Shown piece by piece: positions 3,629-50,890 of a stretch of 64,000 bases of DNA (position 1 is its first letter; each line of letters opens with the position of its first letter). This DNA comes from an uncultured virus (IMG/VR IMGVR_UViG_3300034110_001238). Taxonomy: Duplodnaviria > Heunggongvirae > Uroviricota > Caudoviricetes. Position numbers and translations under genes: made by a program. The DNA is taken from IMG/VR virus record IMGVR_UViG_3300034110_001238; one strand, given 5' to 3'. The notes below the pieces were generated by a model. It was given only the letters and a program-made list of their open reading frames with translations, did not search any database and was not told where the DNA came from.

Positions 3629-3704
3629 TGGTGGAGAAGATGGGATTCGAACCCACGACCTCTTGTATGCCATACAAGCGTTCTACCAACTGAACTACGA
3701 CCCC
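3629..3704 (-). tRNA. tRNA-Ala(GGC)
   Basis: Cloverleaf; anticodon arm CTTGT-ATGGCAT-ACAAG; G3:U70; encoded CCA; two acceptor-stem mismatches. Confidence 0.85.
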
Positions 3705-3713
3705 ATAATAAAG

Positions 3714-3835
3714 TAGAAAGGAATGGATTCGAACCATTACCACTATCACATGGCCTATAAATTACTAGAATTTATCTGACATATGATTTACGTTACCGGG
3801 TCATCCCGGCTGCTCTCCCGTTAAGCTACCTTTCT
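3714..3835 (-). ncRNA. tRNA-like RNA with a non-canonical anticodon loop and a ~55-nt hairpin in the variable-arm position
   Basis: Acceptor AGAAAGG/CCTTTCT, D arm TAGCTTAACGGGAGAGC, T arm AATGG-TTCGAAT-CCATT; no encoded CCA. Confidence 0.7.
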
Positions 3836-3842
3836 ATTAATC

Positions 3843-3917
3843 TGGTGGTTCTGCAAGGAATCGAACCTTAATCATCCCGTTATGAGCGGGGTGCATTTAC
3901 CGTTATGCTACAGAACC
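3843..3917 (-). tRNA. tRNA with CAT anticodon (Met or Ile2)
   Basis: Acceptor GGTTCTG/CAGAACC; loop CT-CAT-AA; CCA. Confidence 0.85.
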
Positions 3918-3934
3918 ATAATTTACATCTAATT

Positions 3935-4011
3935 TGGTGGGACTTGTAAGACTTGAACTTACGACCTGCCGATTATGAGTCGGATGCTCTAACCAACTGA
4001 GCTAAAATCCC
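3935..4011 (-). tRNA. tRNA-Ile2(CAT), lysidine type, reads AUA (Met not excluded)
   Basis: TAGCTCAGTTGGTTAGAGCATCCGACTCATAATCGG..GGTC resembles enterobacterial tRNA-Ile2; CCA. Confidence 0.8.
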
Positions 4012-4082
4012 ATAGTGAATGAATGCCCCCGTAAACCACGGCTTCAATCCAGTCTTACCTTTACAGTAAAACTCCCTTATTC

Positions 4083-4159
4083 TGGCGTCCGTGATAGGAT
4101 TTGAACCTACGACCTTCCGCTTAGGAGGCAGACGCTCTATCCAACTGAGCTACACGGAC
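4083..4159 (-). tRNA. tRNA-Arg(CCT)
   Basis: TCTGC-CTCCTAA-GCGGA; A20 in D loop; GCCA end. Confidence 0.9.
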
Positions 4160-4169
4160 AAAACAAAAC

Positions 4170-4244
4170 TGGTGGACCGTCAGGGACTCGAACCCAGCAC
4201 TCCTGCGTGCAAGGCAGGTATTTTCCCAGCTAAACTAACAGCCC
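4170..4244 (-). tRNA. tRNA-Ala(TGC)
   Basis: CCTGC-CTTGCAC-GCAGG; G3:U70; ACCA. Confidence 0.9.
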
Positions 4245-4441
4245 ATAATAGTATTTCCGCTAACGCTTCAACGATAATAAATATCTCCACGCTTCGAGGT
4301 AACGGTAAATACTTACCGGATATACTTATCAGAAGTCATACTGCAGTGATTAAGCTGCTTCAATCATACGTGACCAGTATACTAGTTGCTAATCAGGCAA
4401 CATGTATCGTTTAAATAAGTTGAATAATCAACTAACTAATT

Positions 4442-4517
4442 TGGCATTCCCAGTAGGACTCGAACCTACAACCGATGACTTAGAAGGTCATTGCTCTTCC
4501 AGTTGAGCTATGAGAAT
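4442..4517 (-). tRNA. tRNA-Arg(TCT)
   Basis: ATGAC-CTTCTAA-GTCAT; GCCA. Confidence 0.9.
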
Positions 4518-4533
4518 ATAAAAAACTATTATT

Positions 4534-4607
4534 TGGTGGAGTCTGAAAGTTTTGACCTTTCATTTACAAGTTGCCTTGTTGTTTTCCGATAGTTAAACTA
4601 AAACCCC
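4534..4607 (-). ncRNA. tRNA-Ala-like RNA with the anticodon loop replaced by a GCAA tetraloop
   Basis: Acceptor GGGGTTT/AGACTCC-ACCA with G3:U70; arm ACAAG-GCAA-CTTGT; T arm GAAAG-GTCAAAA-CTTTC. Confidence 0.75.
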
Positions 4608-4624
4608 TTATAAAACTTTAAAAC

Positions 4625-4701
4625 TGGTGGACACATATGAGATTTGAACTCATGACATCCTGCTTGCAAGGCAGGCGTTCTACCAACTGAACTAATGGCC
4701 C
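4625..4701 (-). tRNA. tRNA-Ala(TGC)
   Basis: CCTGC-CTTGCAA-GCAGG; G3:U70; one-base bulge in acceptor stem. Confidence 0.85.
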
Positions 4702-4716
4702 ATAAAACTTATAAAC

Positions 4717-4791
4717 TGGTGGAGCTATATGGACTCGAACCATATTCTTTAGAAAAAATCCCAAGGTTTTGCCAGTTAAACTAAAAGCCCC
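4717..4791 (-). ncRNA. tRNA-Ala-like RNA with a degenerate U-rich anticodon arm
   Basis: GGGGCT...AGCTCC-ACCA acceptor, intact D and T arms; arm TTGGGATTTTTTCTAA has no 7-nt loop. Confidence 0.7.
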
Positions 4792-4808
4792 ATTGTATTA
4801 CTTAAATC

Positions 4809-4883
4809 TGGTGGACCGACAGAGAATCGAACTCTGAACTCCTGCGTGCAAGGCAAGTGTTTTCCCAGTTAAACTATCAGCCC
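4809..4883 (-). tRNA. tRNA-Ala(TGC)
   Basis: CTTGC-CTTGCAC-GCAGG; G3:U70; ACCA. Confidence 0.9.
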
Positions 4884-4903
4884 ATATCTGGTTACATCTA
4901 ATT

Positions 4904-4980
4904 TGGTGTCTACGGTTGGATTCGAACCAACGACCATCCGCTTAGAAGGCGGATGCTCTATCCAACTGAGCTACGCAGAC
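4904..4980 (-). tRNA. tRNA-Arg(TCT)
   Basis: TCCGC-CTTCTAA-GCGGA; ACCA. Confidence 0.9.
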
Positions 4981-5004
4981 ATATTTCTTTCTATACAACT
5001 AATC

Positions 5005-5079
5005 TGGTGGACCGTCAGAGAATCGAACTCTGAACATCTGCGTGCAAGGCAGGTATTTTCCCAGTTAAACTAACAGCCC
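5005..5079 (-). tRNA. tRNA-Ala(TGC)
   Basis: Near-copy of 4170..4244 and 4809..4883. Confidence 0.9.
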
Positions 5080-5120
5080 ATATTTTAAATTTGATCTAAA
5101 ACAAATCAAGCCAACAAATT

Positions 5121-5198
5121 TGGTGGAGACAAAGAGAATCGAACTCTTCACAGTCTGCGTGCAAGGCAAACTCGCCATCCCTTGGAACATGTGCCCCC
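5121..5198 (-). tRNA. tRNA-Ala(TGC) with an atypical D arm
   Basis: Acceptor GGGGGCA/TGTCTCC; loop CTTGCAC; D region CATGTTCCAAGGGATGGCG. Confidence 0.8.
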
Positions 5199-5254
5199 AT
5201 ATTTATTCTTTATGAAGTGTTTTTCTTTTTGCTTCTCAACTCTTCATGTTTAAC

Positions 5255-5283
5255 ATCATACCAACTCTTTTCTTCTTTGTCAA
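5255..5283 (-). promoter_or_regulatory. Sigma70 promoter P2, proximal to the tRNA array
   Basis: TTGACA-17 nt-TATGAT with TG extended -10. Confidence 0.8.
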
Positions 5284-5374
5284 CAACTATTTTAAATTAT
5301 TTTAAACTATTTTTCTTTTAAAATCAACAATATACATTTATTAGGGTAATACACTACCCTTCTCAAAAAGGCAT

Positions 5375-5408
5375 AAAAAAAGCCTTTGAGTTATTACCCT
5401 CAAAGGCT
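5375..5408 (-). terminator. Attenuator terminator
   Basis: AGCCTTTGAG-GGTAATAA-CTCAAAGGCT plus T6. Confidence 0.85.
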
Positions 5409-5467
5409 CCACATTCGTTTGCCAGAGGGTTTAGCGTGTGCTAACCCCTCTCAATGAGATTAGCTCA

Positions 5468-5509
5468 CTAAGATATCGCTCTGGCTCTTATAGTTAATTG
5501 AATGTTCAT
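5468..5509 (-). CDS. Leader peptide MNIQLTIRARAIS (tRNA-array attenuator)
   Basis: AGGAA SD 8 nt upstream; codons ATA AGA GCC AGA GCG ATA; followed by alternative hairpins and a terminator. Confidence 0.75.
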   Translation of the reverse strand: MNIQLTIRARAIS

Positions 5510-5537
5510 AAAATAAATTCCTATTTAATATTTTTCA

Positions 5538-5566
5538 ATTATAAACCTATTTTCAAAAAAAGTCAA
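5538..5566 (-). promoter_or_regulatory. Sigma70 promoter P1 of the leader and tRNA array
   Basis: TTGACT-17 nt-TATAAT. Confidence 0.8.
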
Positions 5567-5585
5567 TGAAATAAGATCATTTTAT

Positions 5586-6842
5586 TTAAATGGTGAATGT
5601 TTTCTCAACAATCTGTGGTTTATTGAGATATCCAGCCAAGTTTTGACCTTTTTTCTTATTATAGCATTTAGGACACCAAGACTTTCTATGTCGAATAGAT
5701 GAATAGGTTGTATTCCATGTATGTCCGTCAGCACATTCAAACATTAAAGGTGATGTTGAATTGACATAAACAGTCGAAAGAAATTTCCCACCCTTTAGTT
5801 TTGCATGAGCATGCATATCAGCCATAGGATCAACCAATTTATTCTTAGCACAATAGGGACACCATTTGTCACCATAAATAATGGAATCACTGGCTGTATC
5901 AAAAGAATGGCCCTTAGCACAAACAAAACTCTGTTTTTCTTTTAAATTTTTAACACTAACAGATAGACATTGACCACCTTTTGAACGTGCAATTTCTGAA
6001 ATTTCTTCTAATGTGTTACTTTCTCTTAGTCTCCCATTACAATAAGGACACCAATGACCCTTTTTGATAGATTTTGGTACAGCTTCCCATTCATGTCCTT
6101 TCTCACACTTCCATTTAGCTTTTGAATGGGCACCTAAATATTTAACTGATAAACATTCACCTTTCATTTTGTTTGCCAATTCTTTTAATTCATTAATTTT
6201 TGAACTTGCAAAAGGTAACTTTTTAAATTTAGTAATATGTTGTTCAGTAACTTCAACACCTAATTCTACTTTGAAAATTTCAGTTAGGTATGAAATAAAG
6301 TTTTCACGAGAATAGCCATCTTCTAAATACTTAATCTCAATAAGGTTGATATCATTAGCTGCACAAAGCGTTCTTACTTTCAAGTCGCGTTCCTGTTGGT
6401 ATTCAAATGATTTATTGGCACGGTCATGAAAATGAGGTATATAATGATAATGTTGTTCGCCATGATACTCAAAGGCAATCTTTAAATCAGCATTAAAACC
6501 ATCCAGAATACACTTTCTTTCACCATCAATGTGAAGCCATTCAGGGCTAGATCCCTTAAAGGGTTTATTAAAAACAGTTTCGAAGAATTGTCGAACAAGG
6601 TTTTCAGTTTTATTTGAGCGACATGATGGGCACCATGTGCCACGTTTAATATCATTAGGTCGTGCTGACCATTCATGATTATCAATGCATCTAAAATTCA
6701 TCTTGATATTGCTTGCCATATACTCATTATCCAAGCATTCACCACCATTTTCGGTAGCAATAGCAATGATTTCAAGATAATGATCAGCTTTCGTTTTCAA
6801 CGATTTGCTTTTATTAGGCGACAATTCAGTTTTTTTAACCAT
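5586..6842 (-). CDS. Zn-ribbon-repeat endonuclease (putative free-standing homing endonuclease)
   Basis: Four C..xHxW/F...WCPxC repeats plus a restriction-fold-like LDGFN...AFEYHGEQHY motif. Confidence 0.7.
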   Translation of the reverse strand: MVKKTELSPNKSKSLKTKADHYLEIIAIATENGGECLDNEYMASNIKMNFRCIDNHEWSARPNDIKRGTWCPSCRSNKTENLVRQFFETVFNKPFKGSSPEWLHIDGERKCILDGFNADLKIAFEYHGEQHYHYIPHFHDRANKSFEYQQERDLKVRTLCAANDINLIEIKYLEDGYSRENFISYLTEIFKVELGVEVTEQHITKFKKLPFASSKINELKELANKMKGECLSVKYLGAHSKAKWKCEKGHEWEAVPKSIKKGHWCPYCNGRLRESNTLEEISEIARSKGGQCLSVSVKNLKEKQSFVCAKGHSFDTASDSIIYGDKWCPYCAKNKLVDPMADMHAHAKLKGGKFLSTVYVNSTSPLMFECADGHTWNTTYSSIRHRKSWCPKCYNKKKGQNLAGYLNKPQIVEKTFTI

Positions 6843-6951
6843 AATACAATTCCTTAAATTTGGATTATTATACCATAATACTATTCAATTATCTAGAGTT
6901 TTTTATTTGATTTATTTTATGATTATGTTAATATTATAGGAATTTAGGAGC

Positions 6952-7617
6952 ATGAGCATGACAGTCAACGATTTTCCACCAATTCTCAGCCATTTAGGTA
7001 CACAAGTGGGTAAAAAAGATGAATTAATTTTAGTAATCCCTAAGACAAGTAAGCTTTATTATATATTCACAAAAGAAGAAGACACTTACAAAAATAATAC
7101 TAATCAGTTTATCAATAGTTTAAAATCATTAATAGCTTATGAAGATATTGAAGAACATATCACCAGTATTGAAAAAAATGAAACATCAATTACGGTAATC
7201 ATTAATCTTAAACATATAAAATATCAAACAATCACAGTAGGTGATGACTACAATTCAAAGAACCCATTTGTATTTGAATATACGATTGGACATGGCTATG
7301 TAATCAATATACAAATGATAACCATTCGTTATACACAAGACGATATTGTTGAATTATATCAAGAAACAAAACAGTTAGTCAAAAAATGCAAAGACGCTTT
7401 AATTAGAATTGGCTATACTTCCCATTTTTATTCATCCAAATACAAAAATGATAAAAATATAGTACAAGTTTGGATTCGGCCTGAAAAAATCTCGTGTACA
7501 TTAACGTTATCAATCTATGAAAAATATGTATATAAAAATTATAACAACTTAGACAAACTAATGAAAGAAAATAACCTTGATAAACAATACCAAATACTTG
7601 ACACCATTTTAAAATAG
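6952..7617 (+). CDS. Hypothetical protein, paralog of 7630..8394
   Basis: Shared FPPI/FPMI, VGxKx, IPxTSxL and LDxxY...ILK. Confidence 0.7.
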   Translation: MSMTVNDFPPILSHLGTQVGKKDELILVIPKTSKLYYIFTKEEDTYKNNTNQFINSLKSLIAYEDIEEHITSIEKNETSITVIINLKHIKYQTITVGDDYNSKNPFVFEYTIGHGYVINIQMITIRYTQDDIVELYQETKQLVKKCKDALIRIGYTSHFYSSKYKNDKNIVQVWIRPEKISCTLTLSIYEKYVYKNYNNLDKLMKENNLDKQYQILDTILK

Positions 7618-7629
7618 GAGAAAAATATA

Positions 7630-8394
7630 ATGATAAAAAAAACATTAATAATGCTACTATCAATCTATTCGCTAAATACTTATGCGGATGATAAAAAAAC
7701 AGAAACCCAAAAGACACTTGAAAACTTTCCAATGATTTTTACTCAAATGTCAAAAATGGTTGGCGAAAAAGAAACTGTTGATATCTTTATACCAGACACA
7801 TCCTACTTAATAGATACCTTCTATCCTAAAAAAGAGTTAGAAGATAGTAGTCATCTTGTTGTTAGTTTTGCAAGATTGCGTAGAGGCTTAGGATCAAGCA
7901 CCAGTCCTGATATCGCAAAAAGAATTATCAATACAGTAGATACTGAAAATGGTAAATTGATTACTATTGATCTGAAAGGATTAAAACGACAAACATTCAG
8001 AGTGGTCGCTGATAATTCTTTTAATGATTTTTTTAACGAATATGAATTTGCTGATGGTAAAGTGCTTAAAGCTAAACTGATTTTATCAAAAACTAGTATG
8101 TCTAATGATTTTGAAGAAACAGAGAGAGACTACAAATATTTAGCAAAAAGATATAATACCTTTCTAGATAACCAACATTTTAACAAATCATTATTTAACA
8201 ATGGTCGTATCAATGATAAAGAAAAACTCTATGTATCAACCAGTATCGACAAAGATAAAAATTATGCAATAAACAGTATTACATTGACCATAATGAACAG
8301 TAATATACAGGAAAATTACGATAAAATTATTGAAGATTTAGATGAAAAAGACCTAGATAATAAGTATAAAGAATTAAATGATATTCTAAAATGA
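7630..8394 (+). CDS. Secreted hypothetical protein
   Basis: Signal peptide ending TYA; paralog of the upstream gene. Confidence 0.7.
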   Translation: MIKKTLIMLLSIYSLNTYADDKKTETQKTLENFPMIFTQMSKMVGEKETVDIFIPDTSYLIDTFYPKKELEDSSHLVVSFARLRRGLGSSTSPDIAKRIINTVDTENGKLITIDLKGLKRQTFRVVADNSFNDFFNEYEFADGKVLKAKLILSKTSMSNDFEETERDYKYLAKRYNTFLDNQHFNKSLFNNGRINDKEKLYVSTSIDKDKNYAINSITLTIMNSNIQENYDKIIEDLDEKDLDNKYKELNDILK

Positions 8395-8432
8395 CAAAAT
8401 TTTTAATAAAGTTTTATTGAAAATAAAAAAAT

Positions 8433-8457
8433 AAAAACCGCATAAGCGGTTTTTTTA
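8433..8457. terminator. Bidirectional terminator
   Basis: AAAAACCGC-ATAA-GCGGTTTTTTT. Confidence 0.8.
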
Positions 8458-8470
8458 TACTCAAATTATA

Positions 8471-9004
8471 TTATTTAAAAACACCAGCTTTTAACCATGT
8501 CTTATAACGTTCTTGAACCTTGTCAGATGCTTCTGGGTGTAGTTTGTCACAGACGGCTAATGTATCTTGTCCACTATCAACAACGGCTATTTTGTAGTCA
8601 AACTGTCTATCTTCGCAATCCTTTTTAGATCCCAACAAGTAAAGTCTTCTAGCGTCAGGTTGGTCGTAACCAAAATAAGCTCTGCATTCAAACGTTAATG
8701 ATTCACCTTTGTTTTGAAATGAGTAGATATTTGTTCTTGGACTATATTTACTAATGGTGGTACATGGAGATGATTCCATTGTGTAGTCATAATCTGCGAA
8801 TAAACGTTTATCACCATTTTCATTAAAGTCAGCTTGAACATACATAGTTCTCAAATAAATTTTATAATCATTCGTTGACCATTTCAAACTACCCAAGGTA
8901 GGTTCCTTCTCAACGTGTTGAGCTAAGTGATTATCAATGCTTGAACAACCTGCTCCTAAGAGTGCAATAGCAAGTGCCGAAAAAATTTTCATTGTTTGTT
9001 TCAT
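8471..9004 (-). CDS. Lipoprotein
   Basis: Start MKQTMKIF with GGAG SD; lipobox GAGC. Confidence 0.7.
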   Translation of the reverse strand: MKQTMKIFSALAIALLGAGCSSIDNHLAQHVEKEPTLGSLKWSTNDYKIYLRTMYVQADFNENGDKRLFADYDYTMESSPCTTISKYSPRTNIYSFQNKGESLTFECRAYFGYDQPDARRLYLLGSKKDCEDRQFDYKIAVVDSGQDTLAVCDKLHPEASDKVQERYKTWLKAGVFK

Positions 9005-9139
9005 TTTTATCTCCAATAATAATAAAATATTAACTGTTAACGATTTAAAGTCAAGTCTTATGCCCGGTTTGATATAGATTTTAAATGATATTGTTTTGAT
9101 GAATTTAATAAAAAAGACCACTGAGTGTGGTCTTAGTTT

Positions 9140-9745
9140 TTATTTGTAATTATTTACATCGTTTTTAATGCGTATTTCAATATAGCTTATGGTAGGATCA
9201 ATCAATTGTGGTACTGGGATAGATTCTTGTTTATACACTATCTTGTCAGGATTAACTCGTCGGGATAGTAAATAGTCAGTCGCAATACGTGCTCTTGCCT
9301 CAATAATATTAAAATTAGGGTTGTGATAAGTGCTTAAACCATCATAAACGCCTAATGTAAATTCACTAAATTCTTGATCTAACAAATTGATAGCGATTTT
9401 ATTTAATACAGTGTAACCATAACCTGTTAATTGAAATCCATTGTAACTGTAAGCTTCTGCAACAGGAATGTATAGCAATAAGTCATTGCCCTGTTTATTA
9501 ATGATAACCCCTGTTTTATCTAAGTCCTTTGTAAATTCAGCTTGTTGAGTTTCAAGGTAAGCTCGTTTCTCAATGCTCATTTCTGCTGGAATAGGGGTAG
9601 GAGCTACTACGGGTGGTGTTACCACTTGCTCATTACTGATAATTTCAGAGTATCCACTTTGTTCGGTATAATAGCTGGTCGTCACTGAACATCCACTGAC
9701 AGCTAGTGCCAGTGATGAACAGATAAATAAGGTCAACTTATTCAT
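9140..9745 (-). CDS. Lipoprotein with a degenerate OmpA-like domain
   Basis: Lipobox VSGC; GNDLLLYIP, RARIATDYL and IEIRI align with the neighbouring OmpA protein. Confidence 0.65.
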   Translation of the reverse strand: MNKLTLFICSSLALAVSGCSVTTSYYTEQSGYSEIISNEQVVTPPVVAPTPIPAEMSIEKRAYLETQQAEFTKDLDKTGVIINKQGNDLLLYIPVAEAYSYNGFQLTGYGYTVLNKIAINLLDQEFSEFTLGVYDGLSTYHNPNFNIIEARARIATDYLLSRRVNPDKIVYKQESIPVPQLIDPTISYIEIRIKNDVNNYK

Positions 9746-9751
9746 GCTAAA

Positions 9752-10405
9752 TTACTGCTGTTTGTTGATAATTTGAATCTCAACACGACGATTCGTTTGT
9801 TTACCTTGTTCAGTATTGTTGTCTGCAATTGGTTGACGTGGACCATACCCCACTGCTTGAACACGATCTTGTGCGACACCTTGTGCTACAAAGTAGTTAG
9901 CCACTGAATAGGCACGTTGTTCAGACAATACTTGGTTCTTTTCAAAAGATCCAGTGTTATCAGTGTGACCAATTACTACAATATTACTGGTATTATATTC
10001 TTTCAATGTAGTAGCGATAGAATTTAATACTGGGTAGAAAGATGCTGAAATGTCTGACTGTGCTGTTTTGAAAGTAATATTTCCCGGCATAATCAAACTA
10101 AGGTTTTCACCATCACGTTGTACCTGAACACCAGTACCTCTTAGCTGGTCAGATAATTTCTTTTCTTGAACATCAGTGTAATAACCATAACCCGCACCAC
10201 CCGCACCGCCCACGACTGCACCAATCAAAGCACCTTTTTTTCCGCCAGCCAAAGCACCCACTGCAGCACCACCGAGAGCACCGAAACCACCATATTTAGC
10301 ACTTTTTGCGGCCTGACTTTCTCCAGTGTAAGGATTGTTAGTACAACCTGCTAACCCACCCATTAAAAGTGCTGCTGTTAGAACTGATACTGTAATTTTA
10401 CGCAT
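9752..10405 (-). CDS. OmpA-family lipoprotein (YiaD-like, glycine zipper plus OmpA_C)
   Basis: Lipobox LAGC; Gly zipper; GHTDNTG, LSEQRA and NRRVEI; start reset to MRKITVS by AGGAG SD. Confidence 0.92.
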   Translation of the reverse strand: MRKITVSVLTAALLMGGLAGCTNNPYTGESQAAKSAKYGGFGALGGAAVGALAGGKKGALIGAVVGGAGGAGYGYYTDVQEKKLSDQLRGTGVQVQRDGENLSLIMPGNITFKTAQSDISASFYPVLNSIATTLKEYNTSNIVVIGHTDNTGSFEKNQVLSEQRAYSVANYFVAQGVAQDRVQAVGYGPRQPIADNNTEQGKQTNRRVEIQIINKQQ

Positions 10406-10430
10406 ATTGATTCTCCTGATTATTTGTTTG

Positions 10431-10970
10431 TTAAATGTTATTAATTTGTATTTCAATTCGTCTATTCTTAATCTTTTCTTCACTTGTAGGGTTTTTAATG
10501 ATTGGAAATTCATTGCCTACACCGTAAAAACTAATTCTTTTTTCTCTAATTTCTTTCGCTTGCATATAGTCTTTCAACTCTAATGCTTTACGTGTGGTAA
10601 TCACTAATCCTGTGTAATATTCTAATTCATTATCAGTATGTGATACAATTTTTAGCTGGCTGTGTGGTGAGATGACCACCATGTTGGCAATCACATCCAA
10701 ATCTTTTTTGATAGATGACTTAATTGTTTCATTGTCATCTTCAAATACATCTAAATCACTCACTGTTAAAACCAAACTTGTGGCATTTTTAGAAATATCA
10801 AATTTGTTACTCAGTTGCTTTATTAGCATTTGTTCTTGATAATCTGTCACAACACTCATTGTCACATTGTCTTCAAGTAAAAATGCAGGGGGTATTGTTG
10901 ACGTATGACTAGCACATGCTGTCATTAATAAAGAACCACACAATACTGCACCCATTATCATTTTATTCAT
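10431..10970 (-). CDS. OmpA-like lipoprotein
   Basis: Lipobox MTAC; SHTD and NRRIEI. Confidence 0.8.
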   Translation of the reverse strand: MNKMIMGAVLCGSLLMTACASHTSTIPPAFLLEDNVTMSVVTDYQEQMLIKQLSNKFDISKNATSLVLTVSDLDVFEDDNETIKSSIKKDLDVIANMVVISPHSQLKIVSHTDNELEYYTGLVITTRKALELKDYMQAKEIREKRISFYGVGNEFPIIKNPTSEEKIKNRRIEIQINNI

Positions 10971-10980
10971 TGTTATACTC

Positions 10981-11574: not shown

Positions 11575-11701
11575 GTAATATATACCATTATTGATGAAAA
11601 TAATTTACTACGAATATAAAAAAAGTCAAATAAGAAAACCTATTAGTTTGACTTACCTTCTACATTAATGTATAATAATGGACATTTAAGGAGTTAGCTT
11701 A

Positions 11702-12424: not shown

Positions 12425-12426
12425 TT

Positions 12427-13455: not shown

Positions 13456-13517
13456 CAAATTTAACTTGATATTTATTGAAAAATACTTTAAGATAGTAGA
13501 ATATTCACAAAATTAAT

Positions 13518-13534
13518 GGAGAAATCTCATGTAA
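13518..13534 (+). promoter_or_regulatory. SD-ATG-TAA start-stop element
   Basis: GGAG-AAATCTC-ATG-TAA downstream of a TTGAAA...TAGAAT promoter. Confidence 0.55.
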
Positions 13535-13661
13535 CTAATTATATCACGCTAATAAATGACGAAAGCATAACTACAATAGTAATCACTCTACGTCCATTAT
13601 TTGGATAGATTATCTATTACATATAAACGTCAATTATTGCTTAATAATTAGGAGATTTCAC

Positions 13662-14411: not shown

Positions 14412-14597
14412 GATAATCCCTCAGTAGAGGGATTATTGATTTATTAGCCTTTTATTTTTTAGATAAATACTTGTATTTATTTTTAATAGAAGTGCAACGT
14501 AAATTAATAAATATCATTATTTTAATAGTATTTTAATATTTTGTTTTAGTTTTTTTGTAGTATAATAATACTATAAAACAATAAAAAAATAGTTGGT

Positions 14598-18286: not shown

Positions 18287-18315
18287 TTGACTTCTTAAAA
18301 AATAGAGCGTAGAAT
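18287..18315 (+). promoter_or_regulatory. Sigma70 promoter of the Pth2/HD operon
   Basis: TTGACT-17 nt-TAGAAT. Confidence 0.75.
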
Positions 18316-18348
18316 TATAACTGTAAATCAAACAAAGGAGATTACATC

Positions 18349-18810
18349 ATGTTGTAGATTGATAATAACGAATTCGACTTCATCACCAAAGAGGCTATCC
18401 TTAGCCAATACACTCAATTTGTTCCTTCGGACAAAGACTCACATTACTACATCTATTCAATTATTCGCGGCGATTTAAACATGCCAACGGGTAAGCTTGC
18501 TGCTCAAGCTGGTCACGCTTATACGGATGCATTGACAAACGCACAAGAATCGCACCCAGAAAACGTTAAACTTTACAGAAATCGTCAATCGGGCGGATCT
18601 AAGGTTACGTTAAAAGCTAAAAACGAAGATCACTTAATTAAAGCATACAACCAAGCTATTGCTGCGGGATTGCCATGTTCAATTGTTGTCGATCAAGATC
18701 ACATCTTGCCACCACACTTTGATGGTTCACCTATCATTACCGCACTCGGTATTGGTCCTTGCACTAAAGAAGAAGTGAAACAAATCACCAAGAAATTTCA
18801 GTGTGTGTAA
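18349..18810 (+). CDS. pth2: Peptidyl-tRNA hydrolase, Pth2 family, with an in-frame TAG at codon 3
   Basis: YSIIRGDLNMPTGKLAAQAGHA, KVTLK and TALGIGP; AAGGAG SD 8 nt before ATG TTG TAG, in frame with 18481. Confidence 0.85.
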
Positions 18811-19946: not shown

Positions 19947-19976
19947 CACAATTCATTACTTATTAGGAGAACGACC

Positions 19977-20576
19977 ATGACTATGTAGATTGATAACATT
20001 GAAAACCTTAGCTTCAAAGATCTTGTTAAAGAGATGAAAGCCTGTGAACAAACACAAGGCATGAACGTTCTTCAACATGGATTATCAGTCAATAAATACT
20101 TTCAAGATTTGAAAGATCACATTATTGATGGCAAACCATTAACGCTCGAATGGAGACTTCCTGAGTGGATTTATAACAAATCTATTTGGAATAACTTAGT
20201 AGACGAAAAAGACATAAAAACTTATCAGATTTATCACGACTGTGGTAAACCCTTCTGTTTGACTGTTGATGAAAATGGTAACCGTCACTTCCCTGACCAT
20301 GCACAAGCATCTGGTCTAATCTGGCGTAAAATCGGTGGCACTGAACTTCAAGCTCAATTGATGGAGCATGATATGGACATTCATTTGCTTAAAATGGATG
20401 ATTTTGAAACGTTCTATGCACTACCATTCGCTGCAACCCTTTTGATTACTGGCTTCTGTGAGATTCATAGTAATGCTTCCATGTTTGGTGGTATTGAATC
20501 CACGAGCTTTAAAATCAAATGGAAAAAAATTAACAAAATCGGCAAAAAATTTAATGATAAACTATTAGGAGAATAA
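19977..20576 (+). CDS. HD-domain phosphohydrolase with an in-frame TAG at codon 4
   Basis: QHG, YHDCGKP, HFPDHA and HDMDIH; AGGAGA SD before ATG ACT ATG TAG, in frame with 20034. Confidence 0.8.
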
Positions 20577-41727: not shown

Positions 41728-41831
41728 GATATCCTCCTTTTGTAGTAATTGCTTACAATACACTATATGGCTTTGTTTGTAAAGGTTCTTATATGGAGTA
41801 TAATAGTATTAAAACCATAAGGAGGCTCACA

Positions 41832-45365: not shown

Positions 45366-45394
45366 TTGACTTAATCCGTCAATTGTTGTATGAT
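45366..45394 (+). promoter_or_regulatory. Sigma70 promoter of the ileS leader
   Basis: TTGACT-17 nt-TATGAT. Confidence 0.75.
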
Positions 45395-45424: not shown

Positions 45425-45487
45425 ATGAAAACCTTAAATACATTCGTAAACAGCATTATTATTATCCCTAAGTTGCCAATGAGCTAA
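45425..45487 (+). CDS. ileS leader peptide MKTLNTFVNSIIIIPKLPMS
   Basis: ATT ATT ATT ATC run between the promoter and the terminator. Confidence 0.8.
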   Translation: MKTLNTFVNSIIIIPKLPMS

Positions 45488-45509: not shown

Positions 45510-45543
45510 AAAGGCACTCGGTCAAAACCAAGTGCCTTTTTTT
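45510..45543 (+). terminator. Attenuator terminator upstream of ileS
   Basis: AAGGCACT-CGGTCAAAACCA-AGTGCCTT plus T run. Confidence 0.8.
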
Positions 45544-45586: not shown

Positions 45587-48112
45587 ATGAAATATACACT
45601 CAACATGCAAAAAGTCAGTTTCAACCTTAACGAAAAATTCTTGGATAAGTCCAGTTATCTGGAATGCTGGAATAGCCAAGAAATGAAAGACTTTTTAGAA
45701 CAACAACGTCATAAGCCTTTATTCTTGCTTCATGATGGCCCTCCATATGCGAATGGTGACCTGCATTTGGGTCATTTTACCAACAAGGTATTGAAAGATA
45801 CTGTCTTAAAATTTAAACGCCTCAATGGATACTACGCTCCCTTTAACAATGGATTTGACTGTCATGGATTACCCGTAGAATTAGCAGTAGAGAAATTGAA
45901 TAGTGGTAAAACCAATAAACAAGAATTCCTCAATCAGTGTTACCAATATTCTAATGAACAAGTCGCCAATCAATTAGCCCAGTTGAAAGAGTTTGGTATG
46001 TTGGCTGATTTTGATAATTCTTACAAGACAAATGAATTCTTCCGTGAAGCTGAGGAAATGGAAGCCGTTCTTAATTTGTTGGACAAGGACTATCTCTATC
46101 AAAAATTCAGACCTGTTCATTGGTGTAAAGACTGTCAGTCTTCTTTGGCAGAGGCTGAGGTTGAATACAAAGTCAAAACGTCCGATAGCGTAACGGTTGA
46201 ATTTAAACTCAATGATGATACTTATCTACTGGTATGGACAACAACGCCTTATACCTTACCAGCCAACCAAGCAGTTGCGTATAATAAGCGTTTTACTTAT
46301 GCCAAGTATTACAATAAAGCTCATGACAAATATTATGTCACATTGAAAAATGATGCTCTTGATTCTGAAATGGAATTTGTGACTGATGTTGATTTAGATA
46401 ATCTCGTTGTTCAAAGTCCATATAGTAAAAAAATGGTTCCTTTACTTCAAGCCGATTTTGTTGAAAATTCAGGCACTGGCTTTGTTCATGTTGCTCCATC
46501 TTTTGGGTTAGATGACTTTTATTTGGGTGAAAATCATCATCTGGATGTGAATAGCTATGTCGATAACTATGGTAAATATGACTCTGTTGAATTTCCAGAA
46601 CTACAAGGCATGAATTTGAAAGACTCTGCTGCATCTGTATTGGCTACATTACAAGCAGACAACCTTGTATTCAAATTAACCAAACTTGAGCATGAATATC
46701 CACACTGCTGGCGTCATAAGTCTCCCTTGTTCTCAAAAGCTTCGAAAGAATGGTTTATGGATCTCTCTAATGTAAAAGAAAAAGCTCTTGAAGAAGTCGA
46801 AGATGTTAGATTCTTCCCAAGCAATGGTAAGAATAGACTAACCTCTATGCTGGCTACTCGCAATAGCTGGTGTGTATCCAGAAATAGACTTTGGGGAGTT
46901 CCATTGCCAAAAGACAAGACACCCGAAGCTCTTAATGAATATAGAACGTGGGTCACCTTTGTTAAACATAACGGATTATCATCACTTTATACTGAGGACT
47001 TCTCTGCTCAAACACTTGATGTATGGTTTGATAGCGGAATGACTCATACAACTGTGATGAAAAGAAACTACGGTACCACACAATCTGATTTATACTTAGA
47101 AGGTTCTGATCAACACCGTGGATGGTTTCAATCTTCATTATTGACATCAACTGCTTTAAACAATAAAGCACCTTACAAACAAGTGTTTACACATGGATTT
47201 GTTGTAGATTCAAAAGGGATGAAGTTTTCTAAGTCATTAGGTAACTATGTCGCTTTGCAAGACTTGTTGAAACAACACAGTCCTGATGTATTAAGATTGT
47301 GGTGTCTAAACCAAGACTATCATAAAGAACTGACCTATTCGGAAAGCACATTACAAGCCGCGACTGAAATGTATAAGAAATTTAGAAATACATACAGATT
47401 CATGTTGCAAAACCTATATGATTACACACCAGAAAGCGTCTTAAAAACACAAGAGATGGACTTGTTGGATAAATATGTGCTCCATGAAACAAACGAGCTT
47501 AAAAAGACCGTTTTAAAGCTCGGTGATGAATACAAGTTTAATGAAGCCTTAACCGTTTTGTATGCTTTTTGTGATAGATTAAGTGTTCTTTACTTTGAAG
47601 CGAACAAAGACAGATTATATTGTTTAGCTCCTGACGCACCAAGAAGACGATTGACACAATCTGTTTTAAACTATGTTCAACATAATTTAATGGTATTGTT
47701 GTCTACTTACCTTCCGTATTCGACAGAAGAATACTACAGAAGCCTTAACAGCTATTCTGGGTTGAGTGTATTTATGGAAGAACTTCTTGATGATGTTACA
47801 GTTGATTTTGATCAAACCAGCTTTAATAAAGTCTTAGAACTCAGGGATGTAGCGAATAAATTGTTTGAAGAAGGTAGAACAAGCAAAGTAATGTCTAAAA
47901 ACAACGAAATGGTGCTTCACTTAAATAGCGATTTAAATGATGAACAACAAACAGTCCTATCTGTATTGTTGGGAAGTGTTAGCGTTGTTAAACATAACAA
48001 AACTGAACTGTTCAAACATGATTTCAAGAAGTGTGATCGTTGTTGGAACTACTTTAAACAGTTGTGCAACGATAACTTATGCCAGAGTTGCAATGATGTA
48101 GAAAAACAATAA
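45587..48112 (+). CDS. ileS: Isoleucyl-tRNA synthetase (type 1)
   Basis: DGPPYANGDLHLGH, WTTTP, EGSDQHRGWF, KFSKS and C-terminal CDRCW...CQSC. Confidence 0.93.
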   Translation: MKYTLNMQKVSFNLNEKFLDKSSYLECWNSQEMKDFLEQQRHKPLFLLHDGPPYANGDLHLGHFTNKVLKDTVLKFKRLNGYYAPFNNGFDCHGLPVELAVEKLNSGKTNKQEFLNQCYQYSNEQVANQLAQLKEFGMLADFDNSYKTNEFFREAEEMEAVLNLLDKDYLYQKFRPVHWCKDCQSSLAEAEVEYKVKTSDSVTVEFKLNDDTYLLVWTTTPYTLPANQAVAYNKRFTYAKYYNKAHDKYYVTLKNDALDSEMEFVTDVDLDNLVVQSPYSKKMVPLLQADFVENSGTGFVHVAPSFGLDDFYLGENHHLDVNSYVDNYGKYDSVEFPELQGMNLKDSAASVLATLQADNLVFKLTKLEHEYPHCWRHKSPLFSKASKEWFMDLSNVKEKALEEVEDVRFFPSNGKNRLTSMLATRNSWCVSRNRLWGVPLPKDKTPEALNEYRTWVTFVKHNGLSSLYTEDFSAQTLDVWFDSGMTHTTVMKRNYGTTQSDLYLEGSDQHRGWFQSSLLTSTALNNKAPYKQVFTHGFVVDSKGMKFSKSLGNYVALQDLLKQHSPDVLRLWCLNQDYHKELTYSESTLQAATEMYKKFRNTYRFMLQNLYDYTPESVLKTQEMDLLDKYVLHETNELKKTVLKLGDEYKFNEALTVLYAFCDRLSVLYFEANKDRLYCLAPDAPRRRLTQSVLNYVQHNLMVLLSTYLPYSTEEYYRSLNSYSGLSVFMEELLDDVTVDFDQTSFNKVLELRDVANKLFEEGRTSKVMSKNNEMVLHLNSDLNDEQQTVLSVLLGSVSVVKHNKTELFKHDFKKCDRCWNYFKQLCNDNLCQSCNDVEKQ

Positions 48113-48206
48113 GACGAACAGCCACTGCGAAGTGGCTTTTTTTCGCCCTTGAATATTGATTAAATATTACACAATTGATATACTGGAAAAAATTATATAT
48201 GCCTGA

Positions 48207-49118
48207 ATGGATAGTGTCGAAAGTGTGATAAAAGATTGGAAAGATAAAACCATTGATTTCAATCTTTTTAGAAAAAAAATAGTATTACATTTAGACATTA
48301 AAGATGATGTTTTAAAACTTATTGATAAAAATTATATATCCTTGAATGATGTCAGTGACCGATTGAAAGCCGACAGAGATGTAGTGTTGAAAGCTATATC
48401 ACAAAATGGAGACAATCTTTTATTTGCAAACAAAAAGTTTCTGGCTGACCGAGACATTGTGCTTGCCGCTATGAAAAAGACAGGTTATTTAAGCAATAAC
48501 ATTTTTGAAAAATTATCAACCATCTTAAAGAACGATGATGAAATTGTTCACATGACATTAAAACACTCACCAGAATGTTTAGTGCATTTGACTGAAAAGT
48601 ATTCAAACAATAAAGAATTGCTACTAAGATTAAAAGTATGGAAATTAGAAGGTTGTTCTGATTTGTTGAAGAATGATAGAGATGTCGTGTTGATGACAGT
48701 AAAAGCAAATGGATTAAATCTTCAATACGCCAGTAAAGAAATGCAAGATGACTATGAAGTGGTCTTAAATGCAGTCAAAAATCACGGAAAAGCGTTAGAA
48801 TTTGCTTCATCTCGTTTGAAAAGTGATAAAAAAATAATTAAAACGGCTATAAAAAATAATATAGCTGCAGTTTACTATATTTCTGATGGAGCCAGAGACA
48901 ACAAACAAATTATTTTGTCTATTTTAGAACAAGACGGACAATATTTTCATTTAGCCAGTGAAAGACTGAGAAAAGACTTTAAAGTCATAAGAACAGCTCT
49001 TGCTCATAGTGTAGATGGTCTAGTAATTCCATTTTTGTGTCCTGATATATTAGAGCATATGGGGTATGGCAATCCTATAGATCATTTTATGCAAAAAAAA
49101 CATATAAAGACAAAATAA
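48207..49118 (+). CDS. DUF4116-repeat protein
   Basis: Repeats of type LKxDRDVVLxAVxxNGxxLxYAS. Confidence 0.8.
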   Translation: MDSVESVIKDWKDKTIDFNLFRKKIVLHLDIKDDVLKLIDKNYISLNDVSDRLKADRDVVLKAISQNGDNLLFANKKFLADRDIVLAAMKKTGYLSNNIFEKLSTILKNDDEIVHMTLKHSPECLVHLTEKYSNNKELLLRLKVWKLEGCSDLLKNDRDVVLMTVKANGLNLQYASKEMQDDYEVVLNAVKNHGKALEFASSRLKSDKKIIKTAIKNNIAAVYYISDGARDNKQIILSILEQDGQYFHLASERLRKDFKVIRTALAHSVDGLVIPFLCPDILEHMGYGNPIDHFMQKKHIKTK

Positions 49119-49126
49119 GATTAATA

Positions 49127-49852
49127 TTAGATTCCTAACATTTCTATGATGGCTATATCTTCATCAGTTAAATCATTAATCTTACATTTTTTACTATTCA
49201 TATAGAACTTGAACGAATCCAGATTGAGCGGTTTATTATTGAATATTAGTTCATTCTCTTTTTCATTAACAATAAAACCTTTAAAATAAATGCCTATAAC
49301 TTTACCTTCTTCTTGATAGGTTTTAACATTTCTTATCTGTTTTTCATTCATAAATTCAAATGTCCAATGACTGTTTACTTTAACATGTTTTATTCTGTTT
49401 TTAATACTTATCATACCAAAATATATAAATAAGATAGAAGCGATACAATAGATAGCAAAGAAACATCCAATAACAATATGAACAGTGATGTTCATATAAT
49501 CTTTCTCAAAGACACCAATCCATATAAAGAACATTAATATCATAATACATACCTTAAACGACAACATGATAATGAAACTAATGATTTGATAGATATCATT
49601 TTGAGTTTCATTGATACTGGTATAGGTCTTTACCAGAATAGATTTAATTAATAAAACAATATTTAAGAAAATCATTAAAATTAAAGAATACTTAATGATA
49701 GGATGTATAAATGAAACAGCTTCAAAGTAATCATCTCTTCCAATAGCTTGTAGACCAAGAAATAGAATACATACTACTATATTGATTGCATGATAATTGT
49801 AAATATAGAGAGTTGGCAACATGATTGGGGCTTTTATTTTATTTAAATACAT
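49127..49852 (-). CDS. Four-TM membrane protein, MxxI tail
   Basis: Paralog of 49855; YFKGF; ends IIEMLGI. Confidence 0.7.
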   Translation of the reverse strand: MYLNKIKAPIMLPTLYIYNYHAINIVVCILFLGLQAIGRDDYFEAVSFIHPIIKYSLILMIFLNIVLLIKSILVKTYTSINETQNDIYQIISFIIMLSFKVCIMILMFFIWIGVFEKDYMNITVHIVIGCFFAIYCIASILFIYFGMISIKNRIKHVKVNSHWTFEFMNEKQIRNVKTYQEEGKVIGIYFKGFIVNEKENELIFNNKPLNLDSFKFYMNSKKCKINDLTDEDIAIIEMLGI

Positions 49853-49854
49853 CG

Positions 49855-50562
49855 TTATATTCCCAACATTTCAATGACTTTCAGTTCGTCATCATTCAAA
49901 TCATCTAATTTTAAATTATTGAGTGTTATATAGTCTCGAAATGCATTCAATTCAAGTTTATGATTTCTAATTACAACACTTTTATCTATTTCATTAAGAA
50001 GGAAACCTTTAAAATAGACGGAAACTATTTTTCCATTTTCATCAAGTCGTTTACTTTTATTCAGTTGTTGTGTATCTAAATGATCATTAATCCAATGATA
50101 CTTGTCAACAGGAATTAATAAATGATAAAAAATTCCTTTAATTGATAAAAAAATAAATAATCCAACCAAACAAACAAGAGCAGTCATCTGCATTATATAA
50201 TAACAATTGGCAATTTCAAACCAATCTTCTGTTAAATTACCTTCTGCGTTAGCACTTCCAAATACCAAAATATAATGTGAAAATTTTAAAAAAATCATAA
50301 CATAAATTGGAAAAAGTGATATAGTGACAGTTCGATATGTTTTATCAAAAAAACTTTTAATATACATAAATATATTTAGAACAGCTAGCACGCTTAATAC
50401 ATATATCATAGGAATTTCTACATATTTTCTAAGTGATAATATTTCTTTATGAATATTATGTGGCAATGGAATAGAAAGAACAATAACTAAAAGAGATCCA
50501 AAAAACACAAAAGAGTAATAATTCTTGAAATAAAAAAATGGCAATATTGATCTAATATTCAT
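49855..50562 (-). CDS. Four-TM membrane protein, MxxI tail
   Basis: YFKGF; ends VIEMLGI. Confidence 0.7.
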   Translation of the reverse strand: MNIRSILPFFYFKNYYSFVFFGSLLVIVLSIPLPHNIHKEILSLRKYVEIPMIYVLSVLAVLNIFMYIKSFFDKTYRTVTISLFPIYVMIFLKFSHYILVFGSANAEGNLTEDWFEIANCYYIMQMTALVCLVGLFIFLSIKGIFYHLLIPVDKYHWINDHLDTQQLNKSKRLDENGKIVSVYFKGFLLNEIDKSVVIRNHKLELNAFRDYITLNNLKLDDLNDDELKVIEMLGI

Positions 50563-50689
50563 AAATACTCCATAACAGTCAAAGAAGTATAATATATAAT
50601 CTTAAATAAGACAATATTTTTTTACAAAAAAGCCTTTATTTTAGTAAAATACTATGATATTATAGGGAAATAACTAGGAGAGTAGTGAA

Positions 50690-50890
50690 ATGAAAAAGAA
50701 AAAGAATCAACAGCAACAAGAGTCAAGAAATTTCGTTGCTAAATATATGCATGAAATGGGTAACTGTGGTCTTCGTGTTGTAGAAGATAAAAAAGCTAAA
50801 TCAAAACGTGGAGAAGGTAAAAACTCCTTTAATAAGGCTTCTTTGAGAAAAGACTCACATGAAGCCTCTGCACGCTCATCAAACGCATAA
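50690..50890 (+). CDS. Small basic protein, possibly ArfA-like
   Basis: AGGAG SD; RNFVAK...RVVEDKKAKSKRG. Confidence 0.55.
   Translation: MKKKKNQQQQESRNFVAKYMHEMGNCGLRVVEDKKAKSKRGEGKNSFNKASLRKDSHEASARSSNA

Follow-up and report, generated by a model that had tools for sequence, protein, structure and literature searches.

How could a very large phage keep its own tRNA and aminoacyl-tRNA synthetase (aaRS) genes in step with the state of translation in the infected cell? The question is raised by a 64,000-nucleotide stretch of DNA from an uncultured virus (IMG/VR IMGVR_UViG_3300034110_001238), which we call the window and take at its full length. In it, a 12-tRNA array and ileS each lie behind a short leader open reading frame (ORF), and pth2 and a second gene, labelled 'HD', each have an in-frame stop codon a few codons after the start. 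A first look at the letters alone (the original prediction) took these features, together with a start-stop element, for one surveillance system that monitors decoding, charging and termination and induces the matching remedy. We conclude that the window probably holds two kinds of translation-coupled cis control acting on phage translation genes, namely attenuators with cognate-codon leader peptides and a gate operated by a suppressor tRNA. The conclusion draws on sequence anatomy, conservation, paralogy, predicted alternative folds and the matching tRNAs found in fully screened relatives. Much of the comparison is with G001, an IMG/VR contig of 181,270 bp (CheckV completeness 58%, class "provirus"), positions 98,671-161,841 of which are collinear with the window at 82-90% nucleotide identity.

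Leader peptides ahead of ileS and of the tRNA arrays

The ileS gene of the window (45587..48112, plus strand; 841 aa) starts with an ATG at 45587 behind a Shine-Dalgarno (SD) sequence, and its product matches TIGR00392 (653 bits, cut-off 621) and Pfam tRNA-synt_1. Upstream on the same strand we read a promoter (TTGACT-17-TATGAT, 45366..45394), a leader ORF encoding MKTLNTFVNSIIIIPKLPMS (45425..45487) with a weak SD (AAGAGA), and a terminator, GGCACUCGGU..ACCAAGUGCC plus U7 (45510-45543). The four Ile codons of the leader (45455-45466) are followed by the 5' arm of an antiterminator, AGUUGCC (45471-45477), and then by a hairpin past the leader stop. This is a predicted ileS attenuator of a known kind, here borne by a phage.

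The G001 leader differs from that of the window by one synonymous change, and this copy is too close to be informative about conservation (the leader region is 97.4% identical, vs 89.0% for ileS itself). A metagenome scan returned two large contigs, L130 (274 kb) and L131 (443 kb), whose IleRS proteins are 59% and 62% identical and in which promoter, leader and terminator are kept before ileS, with TTGAC-type promoters at the equivalent place. The leader peptides there are MNTVQYYTNIIIISTLPLG and MNNQNNSIIIIYMLPSG. The three leaders agree in all four Ile codons and in a TTG-CC that follows at a distance of two codons; the other residues drift. The outer stem UGCC(UU):(AA)GGCA, which can join the leader to the 5' arm of the terminator, is conserved and reaches 8 perfect pairs in L130. 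The hairpin past the leader stop changes in a compensatory manner (UAACA/UGUUA, GACG/CGUC, UGAC/GUCA); the Ile codons pair with the loop of this hairpin, and here too the changes compensate (UUAUCC:GGAUAA, AUAAUUA:UAAUUAU, UAAUCUA:UAGAUUA). As a control, we examined the upstream sequence (at least 300 nt) of 146 ileS loci: 6 have a short ORF that runs through three or more Ile codons in succession, and only 3, all phage relatives, have IIII plus a terminator in the phage layout. Absence from related genomes, which the original prediction had named as grounds for doubt, was found neither for this leader nor for the early stops described below; the array leader was checked in a close relative. 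No leader was found before the more distant phage ileS genes of L082 and L083 (31-36% identity).

The phage IleRS is 93% identical to that of G001, and the best bacterial IleRS is 43% identical. It is a short form of the enzyme, and its nearest cellular relatives (those at 43%) are extra ileS copies of Achromobacter and Kerstersia, before which the Ile leader is absent. On one bacterial contig from the control screen (L192, a 3-Mb metagenome contig, about position 1214), an ORF encoding MIIIINKADRI and a terminator-like hairpin stand before ileS; this may be an independent Ile attenuator.

The second leader lies on the minus strand ahead of the 12-tRNA array (3629..5196; called by ARAGORN and Rfam). 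Promoter P1 (TTGACT-17-TATAAT, 5538..5566; -35 at 5566-5561, -10 at 5543-5538) is followed by a leader ORF with SD AGGA that encodes MNIQLTIRARAIS (5468..5509) and contains the codons ATA AGA GCC AGA GCG ATA. The attenuator RNA extends over 5375..5485. Its segment 1, GCCAGAG (5485-5479), consists of Ala-Arg-Ala codons and pairs with CUCUGGC; segment 2, ACCCUCUGGC (5430-5421), can alternatively pair with the terminator arm GCCUUUGAGGGU; and segments 3 and 4, GGAGCCUUUGAG...CUCAAAGGCU plus a U-run (5410-5375), form the terminator. The leader is predicted to fold in the classical 1:2 / 2:3 / 3:4 layout, with a fold z of -5.7. A second promoter, P2 (TTGACA-17-TATGAT, 5255..5283), stands between the terminator and the first tRNA. 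The array comprises tRNA-Ala (tgc x5 and ggc), tRNA-Arg (tct x2 and cct), tRNA-Lys (ttt) and two tRNAs with anticodon CAT. The anticodons tct x2, ggc, tgc x5 and cat x2 match the leader codons AGA, GCC, GCG and possibly ATA. Initiator tRNAs are marked by a first-pair mismatch and a GGG/CCC anticodon stem, and both CAT tRNAs are without either mark; each may be an elongator tRNA-Met or the lysidine-type tRNA-Ile2, which reads ATA. P1, leader and terminator together (5372-5565, 194 nt) are 100% identical between window and G001, and the adjacent HNH coding sequence (CDS) is 87.8% identical.

We suspect that both leaders work by stalling. The short leader ORF would be translated on a transcript made from a sigma-70-type promoter, and a ribosome stalled at the cognate codons (in the ileS leader IIII; in the array leader AGA-GCC-AGA-GCG with ATA on either side) would free, or leave free, an antiterminator that competes with the intrinsic terminator. 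Transcription would then continue into ileS or, at the array, run past the constitutive second promoter into the tRNA genes. If instead the ribosome reaches the leader stop, it would mask the antiterminator, and transcription would end. The ileS leader would thus sense charged tRNA-Ile, and at the array the supply of the encoded tRNAs would feed back on their own synthesis. We modelled this by ending the transcript just past the 5' arm of the terminator, masking the footprint of the ribosome and scoring the pairing of that arm with upstream sequence (mask model). In the ileS leader of L130, arm occupancy is 0.12 when the leader is free, 0.74-0.79 with a stall on Ile codons 1-3, 0.36 on the fourth and 0.02 with the ribosome at the stop. 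The array leader gives 0.04 when free, 0.53-0.59 when the ribosome stalls at Arg/Ala codons and 0.19 when it sits at the stop.

The original prediction held that each sensor is wired to a matching remedy and suggested a search for further leaders. Both ideas held up: Ile codons precede ileS, Ala/Arg (and perhaps Ile) codons precede an Ala/Arg tRNA array, and three more cassettes, with Leu, Asp/Asn and Pro codons, were found in G001. Outside the part shared with the window, G001 has a second array of 13 tRNAs, made up of 11 tRNA-Leu (anticodons tag, taa, caa, cag and aag), one tRNA-Gln and one odd tRNA. It is preceded by a promoter, a leader encoding MFTTIRLSLLLLSSLLLSLG, alternative hairpins, a terminator and then a P2 block of roughly 50 nt that recurs from the window array. 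The leader MFTTIRLSLLLLSSLLLSLG has nine Leu codons and uses all six kinds of Leu codon. In the mask model its arm occupancy is 0.24 when free; stalls at Leu codons 7-15 mostly raise it to 0.62-0.94, with lower values for the later of these codons, and with the ribosome at the stop it is 0.06. The G001 gene for aspartate--tRNA(Asn) ligase (NF003483, 428 bits, cut-off 353) lies behind a leader MTIRFIADNNDNFAQLSVGLSVA (also given as MTIRFIADNNDNF...) with the run DNNDN. Such a non-discriminating AspRS charges the tRNAs of both Asp and Asn, so that the mixed Asp/Asn codons of the leader are those of its two codon families. Lastly, a short ProRS gene (TIGR00409, 338 vs a cut-off of 307) lies behind the leader MKTNIALFKTIRPLPLMLGV, which contains PLPL and whose end codons (UUGGGCGU) form a predicted antiterminator against ACGCCCAA.

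These cassettes have more than their layout in common. All five leaders have a GC-rich hairpin with a U-run as terminator ahead of the gene, T-I-R stands immediately ahead of the cognate codons in four of the five, and AAAGGCACUC is common to the ileS and aspS terminators. Because T-I-R and AAAGGCACUC are shared, we regard the cassettes as paralogous. Leaders of this composition are rare. Among the 1770 ATG-ORFs of 10-30 codons in G001, IIII occurs in 6, a Leu content of at least 45% in 3, PxP in 22, and [DN]5 and [AR]4 runs in one each (the aspS leader and the array leader themselves), a background frequency of 0.06-1.2%; in the window, 2 of 580 short ORFs have an [AR]4 run. Rfam reports only tRNAs in the window at gathering score and, with a threshold of E<=1, no leader family in the 49 kb of loci from relatives that hold all five leaders. 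Scans of viral contigs with the ProRS and AspRS returned G001 alone.

Several observations weigh against attenuation. A near-consensus P2 stands between the attenuator and each tRNA array. With P2 downstream of the terminator, an array need not depend on read-through, which would only add to P2-driven transcription. The array leaders were seen just in the window and its roughly 90% relative, their conservation being judged from the identical G001 copy and one paralogue, and nothing similar was found in 11 regions upstream of tRNA clusters in two other huge phages (five in Atu_ph07, six in G003). A scan with an 18-mer of P2 gave 31 loci, in which the only relatives were the two arrays of G001 (the phages L110 and L111 are not related). 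In mask folding the Ala/Arg, Leu and Pro leaders switch as expected and the aspS leader does not; the ileS leaders of the window and L131 have the topology of L130 and switch weakly, the antiterminator of the window reaching -7.3 kcal/mol. The Pro leader holds two Pro codons only, and full-length equilibrium folds favour the terminator in every leader.

One reading of these facts is that the leader-terminator units at the arrays are self-contained, serving as small RNAs, peptides or insulators, and that P2 alone drives the arrays. The strong P2 behind each terminator, the great stability of the terminators (-16 to -18 kcal/mol) and the comparison of array leaders with a close relative only are all as this reading would have it. 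However, the leader codons fit the downstream tRNAs in two independent arrays (Leu and Arg/Ala), segment 1 of the switch consists of exactly those cognate codons, and a like cassette precedes aaRS genes with no second promoter between. We consider it unlikely that the units are self-contained, and continue to favour stalling-dependent attenuation.

Some further features of the arrays were noted in passing. A hairpin between P2 and the first tRNA is conserved in both arrays (AUGAAGAGU...ACUUCAU in the window at 5197-5254, minus strand; GAAGAGUG...CACUCUU at about 3002-3060, minus strand, of the G001 locus L084), and it may be a processing signal. Relaxed ARAGORN reports an additional tRNA-Arg(tct)-like sequence within the window array (3713-3797, minus strand), and Rfam has a 124-nt tRNA match at the corresponding place of G001 (158038-158161); the sequence may be degenerate or intron-bearing. 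ARAGORN reads a two-base anticodon 'tt' in the G001 copy of the window tRNA-Lys (L085, 2010-2084) and a four-base anticodon 'cgct' in one tRNA of the Leu array (L084, 2733-2818). An HNH/DUF4379 homing-endonuclease-like gene (5586-6842, minus strand) lies directly upstream of the array leader.

Early in-frame stops in pth2 and the HD-like gene

The start region of pth2 (18287..18357, plus strand) has a promoter (TTGACT-17-TAGAAT), an SD (AAGGAG, 18335-18340) and then ATG TTG TAG (18349-18357). The PTH2 coding region continues in frame past the TAG (18358..18810), beginning ATT GAT AAT, and matches PF01981 with 72.5 bits vs a cut-off of 23; the NCBIfam Pth2 models give 67-77 bits, under their cut-offs of 82-126. 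The first canonical ATG is at 18481, and ATG, GTG and TTG are all missing between the TAG and that Met. The PF01981 profile is already at position 13 there, and the alignments of PHROG and NCBIfam reach back to 7-15 residues before that Met. The 'HD' gene begins in a similar manner, with SD AGGAG (19965-19969), ATG ACT ATG TAG (19977-19988; start region 19965..19988, plus strand) and a coding region that runs in frame past the TAG (19989..20576), beginning ATT GAT AAC; its product belongs to phrog_14850, with a PHROG match of 5e-65 from residue 7. The two starts share a 13-mer, TGTAGATTGATAA, with no other exact copy in the window, and both start regions are identical in G001. In the window and the 181 kb of G001, only these two genes combine an SD, a start, up to 4 codons, a stop and at least 80 open codons without a nearby start. 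A ribosomal hop or frameshift at the TAG was ruled out by reading the frames: the zero frame continues.

Early stops recur in pth2 of other phages. In the Agrobacterium phage Atu_ph07, whose PTH2 is 44% identical with homology over all 150 residues, an SD is followed by ATG ATT GGC GAA CAC TTT TGA and then, in frame, by ATT AAT TAT...; GenBank sets the start 32 codons downstream. An alignment-based scan returned eight further IMG/VR huge-phage contigs with an early TAG. In each, SD, ATG, 4-6 codons and TAG lead into the PTH2 frame, which offers no canonical start ahead of ...RIYSIIRGDLDM. In seven of the eight, M-[LI]-[TSI]-N-S-F-L precedes the TAG with many synonymous differences: it is the amino acids of the mini-peptide MLTNSFL that are conserved. 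At its pth2, Salmonella phage Arash reads GAGGAA and ATG CTG TAG AAC AAA..., for which GenBank (OQ632216.1; our L237) records just a 50-aa "peptidyl-tRNA hydrolase" fragment at 753-905. In all, 11 phage lineages have an early in-frame stop in pth2, ten with TAG and one with TGA; the more distant pth2 genes of RsoM2USA and XacN1 have ordinary annotated starts.

The HD gene has its early TAG in four of six lineages: besides the window these are LR745206.1 (ATG AAT ACT TAG ATT), XacN1 (ATG AAG TAG ACC ATT) and RsoM2USA (...ATG AAA TCG TAG ATC, where the TAG closes a long upstream ORF). In ME3 and Arash the start is ordinary. The XacN1 record (AP018399.1; our L238) has the in-frame AGG..ATG AAG TAG at 392-427, ahead of the HD-like ORF364 and upstream of its annotated start. 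A scan with the HD alignment returned G001 and ME3 only.

What could read these stops? A tRNA with the matching anticodon is present in all eight of the complete or near-complete genomes checked that have an early stop or a pth2-HD pair. There are three tRNA(CUA) genes in G004, two in G005, one in G006 and one in RsoM2USA; in G004, G005 and G006 one of them lies 2-5 kb from pth2, and in ME3 and Arash a tRNA(CUA) lies within about 0.5-0.8 kb of the HD gene. In Atu_ph07, with its TGA, the 30 ARAGORN tRNAs include one of 75 nt that has the anticodon TCA, and none that has CTA. The type of stop thus tracks the tRNA set of the phage (TGA with tRNA(UCA), TAG with tRNA(CUA)), which argues for decoding by a phage suppressor tRNA. 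Most likely a phage-encoded amber suppressor tRNA decodes the TAG, and Pth2 and the HD-like protein would be made only in proportion to suppressor activity. For XacN1, the published description reports two tRNA(CUA) genes, targets of which its authors could not find (PMC5852040). The early TAG ahead of ORF364, as read from the sequence, is a candidate target. The Arash tRNA(CUA) (1891-1962; ARAGORN anticodon CTA) is labelled tRNA-Phe in GenBank.

Not every observation fits. A ninth genome, LR745206.1, has no matching tRNA in 50 of 59 tRNAs, and no tRNA(CUA) was found in the window or in the 181-kb, 58% complete G001 by relaxed ARAGORN or by BLAST with the suppressors of relatives. ME3 has a tRNA(CUA), yet its HD gene starts ordinarily. 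ATT or ATC stands directly behind the stop in five genes (pth2 and HD of the window, pth2 of Atu_ph07, HD of LR745206.1 and of RsoM2USA), which would also fit termination and re-initiation: the ribosome would translate a mini-ORF of 2-7 codons and restart at the next codon, AUU or AUC, with no suppressor. Expression would then be low and sensitive to initiation factor 3 (IF3) or to termination. The ATG that the ME3 HD protein has where the window has ATT, and the missing tRNA(CUA) of the window and G001, are in keeping with this. Re-initiation and discrimination by IF3 against non-canonical starts are established (PMC2268962). However, the codon after the TAG is GAA or GAC in the eight contigs and AAC in Arash, cases that re-initiation at ATT or ATC cannot explain, and a start-like codon comes there only past the first conserved PTH2 strand. 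In addition, the peptide of the mini-ORF is conserved despite synonymous changes, as expected for part of a protein, and the type of stop agrees with the anticodon of the phage suppressor. Re-initiation is thus a rather improbable account, and the early ambers look like suppressor-tRNA gates rather than sensors of release factor 1 (RF1). The gate would act on a conserved module that pth2, the HD-like gene and the tRNA(CUA) gene make up.

The gate appears to be local. A genome-wide reassignment of TAG (code 15-like) was considered and rejected: among window ORFs of at least 120 aa, stop use is TAA 55, TGA 11 and TAG 5, so TAG closes 5 of 71 ORFs, the ORFs are intact and the code is standard. 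Around pth2 in G004 and G005, TAG closes 13 of 78 ORFs, and the other ORF pairs joined by a TAG have promoters and starts of their own. The stretches of 2 x 20 kb around pth2 in these two genomes contain no further convincing early amber; the candidates there (for example an ORF that is CysRS-like by its motifs) have ordinary starts just downstream.

The label 'HD' itself needs qualification. The protein has at least 1202 homologues, and a Pfam family is precomputed for none of the 120 listed; it has no Pfam match at E<=1, and a sequence search of the PDB gave chance-level matches only. Residues H30, H44, H83-D84, H104, D128 and H132 are invariant in 37 sequences. The AlphaFold2 model (pLDDT 96.4) is matched weakly by the HD proteins PhnZ, PgpH and YfbR, and among PDB folds Foldseek places chains of the class II tRNA A-adding enzyme first (3wfo/3wfr; TMq 0.58-0.60, E 3e-3). 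Thus both gated genes seem to be tRNA-linked, the HD-like one by virtue of its modelled fold. Some homologues bear Pseudomonas genome names, which hints at host range.

One system or several, and the genetic setting

The remaining element of the original prediction is a start-stop, SD GGAG-N8-ATG-TAA (13517..13534, plus strand), in the 5' untranslated region (UTR) of the ORF at 13662-14411, with a promoter-like TTGATA-17-TAAGAT ahead of it. The UTR is 95.6% identical to G001 (flanking CDS 89-94%), and the element lies inside a 75-nt core that is invariant between the two. A loose SD test is passed by 9 of the roughly 180 ATG-stop sites of the window, so the element does not clearly stand out from chance, and it may be no more than a conserved UTR. 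The two leaders and the early ambers, the other elements named, are real and non-random.

Do the elements form one system? In the original prediction the early ambers were sensors of RF1 and termination, and the four elements were a single surveillance system that induces remedies under attack. An early in-frame stop does resemble the autoregulation of prfB, and genes for translation or tRNA repair are abundant in the window and G001 (HAD_SAK_2, YqeY, PTH2, RtcB and an RNA ligase-phosphoesterase fusion). The stop of Atu_ph07 is TGA, read by RF2 and not RF1, and occurs with a tRNA(UCA), just as TAG is found where a tRNA(CUA) is present. No frameshift is required, the zero frame simply continuing, and relatives carry the matching suppressors. 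The leaders and gates lie in separate transcription units without a shared regulator. We therefore regard RF1 sensing within one surveillance system as very improbable. Any link to host defence would likewise be conjectural, as would induction by anticodon-nuclease attack or by a mismatch in codon usage. The cis controls are several and independent: they are separate units scattered across 47 kb, with unrelated genes in between.

The accompanying genes were only partly as described. Pfam supports HAD_SAK_2 (334-786), YqeY (41287-41763) and PTH2. The 'RlmN-like' gene has a weak radical-SAM/RlmN-Cfr match (50-57 bits vs cut-offs of 290-633), and an 'ArfA-like' gene was not located. Outside the part shared with the window, G001 encodes RtcB (L087, 8791-10227), a phosphoesterase fused to a T4-type RNA ligase (L091, 15908-18259), asparagine synthase (L089, 8948-10804) and a protein kinase (L087, 3425-5278). 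The first two would make a tRNA-repair set, which fits the translation theme.

The window is AT-rich (27-40% GC) with sigma-70-like promoters and dense ORFs of 100-840 aa, most of them without a Pfam family. PHROG matches include an HNH homing endonuclease beside the tRNA array, MazG, dCMP deaminase, DprA-like and Sir2 proteins, and strong families are phrog_27142 and phrog_14850; these matches point to an accessory region of a very large phage. Cell-like genes unusual in a phage lie at 28436-29581, 27735-28112, 38013-40310, 42323-44191, 40422-41264 and 9752-11000, and comprise a CoaD-like/CoaE fusion, SufE, a ClpB-type double AAA ATPase, an MFS-acyltransferase fusion, a PilS-domain protein and two OmpA-domain proteins. 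Eight successive ORFs of 191-285 aa on the plus strand (52624-59072) have no Pfam or PHROG match. Contigs from four DNA sequencing runs span 3600-20600 at about 95-97% identity, and the runs with 20-43% of the sequence words of the window are freshwater, food, dairy and plant metagenomes, a hint at host range.

Relation to known systems, and what the controls may mean

The predicted attenuators belong to a familiar class of regulators. In E. coli, pheM-pheST is a leader-peptide attenuator of an aaRS gene. As in such attenuators, the cassettes here have a promoter, a short ORF in which cognate codons follow one another, a predicted antiterminator, a terminator and the aaRS gene, in that order, and a stalled ribosome would be the sensor. 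They differ in being encoded by a phage, in forming a family of five paralogous cassettes with T-I-R and terminator sequence in common, and in their targets, IleRS, a non-discriminating AspRS (with mixed Asp/Asn codons) and ProRS. A His leader before hisS paralogues is known from bacilli (PMC2965389). T-box riboswitches, too, make read-through into aaRS genes depend on the state of a specific tRNA; unlike them, the leaders here have no T-box match and would sense the tRNA through translation of the leader, not by direct binding. The classical attenuators of amino acid operons are trpL, leuL, hisL and ilvL. The Ala/Arg and Leu leaders have their 1:2 / 2:3 / 3:4 architecture in mask folding, but here a block of tRNAs would be regulated rather than biosynthetic enzymes, and a second promoter stands behind the terminator. 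As the regulated products are tRNA genes, the sensed molecule and the induced product would be identical tRNAs.

The gate has its own precedents. In Streptomyces, the bldA tRNA-Leu(UAA) controls genes that contain TTA; prfB is autoregulated at an in-frame UGA; and the bar minigenes of phage lambda give products that are handled by Pth. As with bldA and prfB, expression here would hang on one special tRNA or on the decoding of an early stop, and the form SD-ATG-1-2 codons-stop is that of the lambda bar minigenes. In contrast to bldA, the gated codon is a stop and not a rare sense codon, and in contrast to prfB, no frameshift is needed. Recoding of stop codons by phages with suppressor tRNAs is the subject of a preprint (10.1101/2021.08.26.457843). 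Such phages also have a phage tRNA(CUA) or tRNA(UCA) and in-frame stops inside phage genes, whereas here the recoding is not genome-wide and concerns a single stop at codon 3-8 of one or two genes, pth2 and the HD-like gene, often beside the suppressor tRNA. Attenuators of tRNA arrays and the link between pth2 and suppressors appear to be undescribed. Searches of the open-access literature returned no description of a tRNA array led by a peptide in the codons that it serves, of a paralogous cassette family of this sort in one phage, or of an early stop in a phage pth2 tied to phage suppressor tRNAs.

The tRNAs and aaRSs of phages are usually viewed as constitutive aids to codon usage or as counter-measures to tRNA-cleaving defences. 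Here their expression appears to be under feedback control by the very state of translation that they repair. The early stops in cultured phages (pth2 of Atu_ph07 and Arash; the HD gene of XacN1 and RsoM2USA) are candidate targets of suppressor tRNAs. They also expose a systematic mis-annotation, in that gated genes are recorded as truncated or split, as with pth2 of Atu_ph07 and pth of Arash. We speculate, more tentatively, that huge phages might run a self-contained regulon for translation homeostasis, in which cognate-codon leaders act alongside a dedicated suppressor tRNA that activates the translation of a conserved module comprising pth2, an HD-like tRNA enzyme and the tRNA(CUA) gene. 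If so, the supply and charging of tRNAs would be under closed-loop control during infection, the recycling of peptidyl-tRNA would be coupled to the stop-codon read-through that the phage itself causes, and the long-missing targets of the suppressor tRNAs of jumbo phages would have been named.

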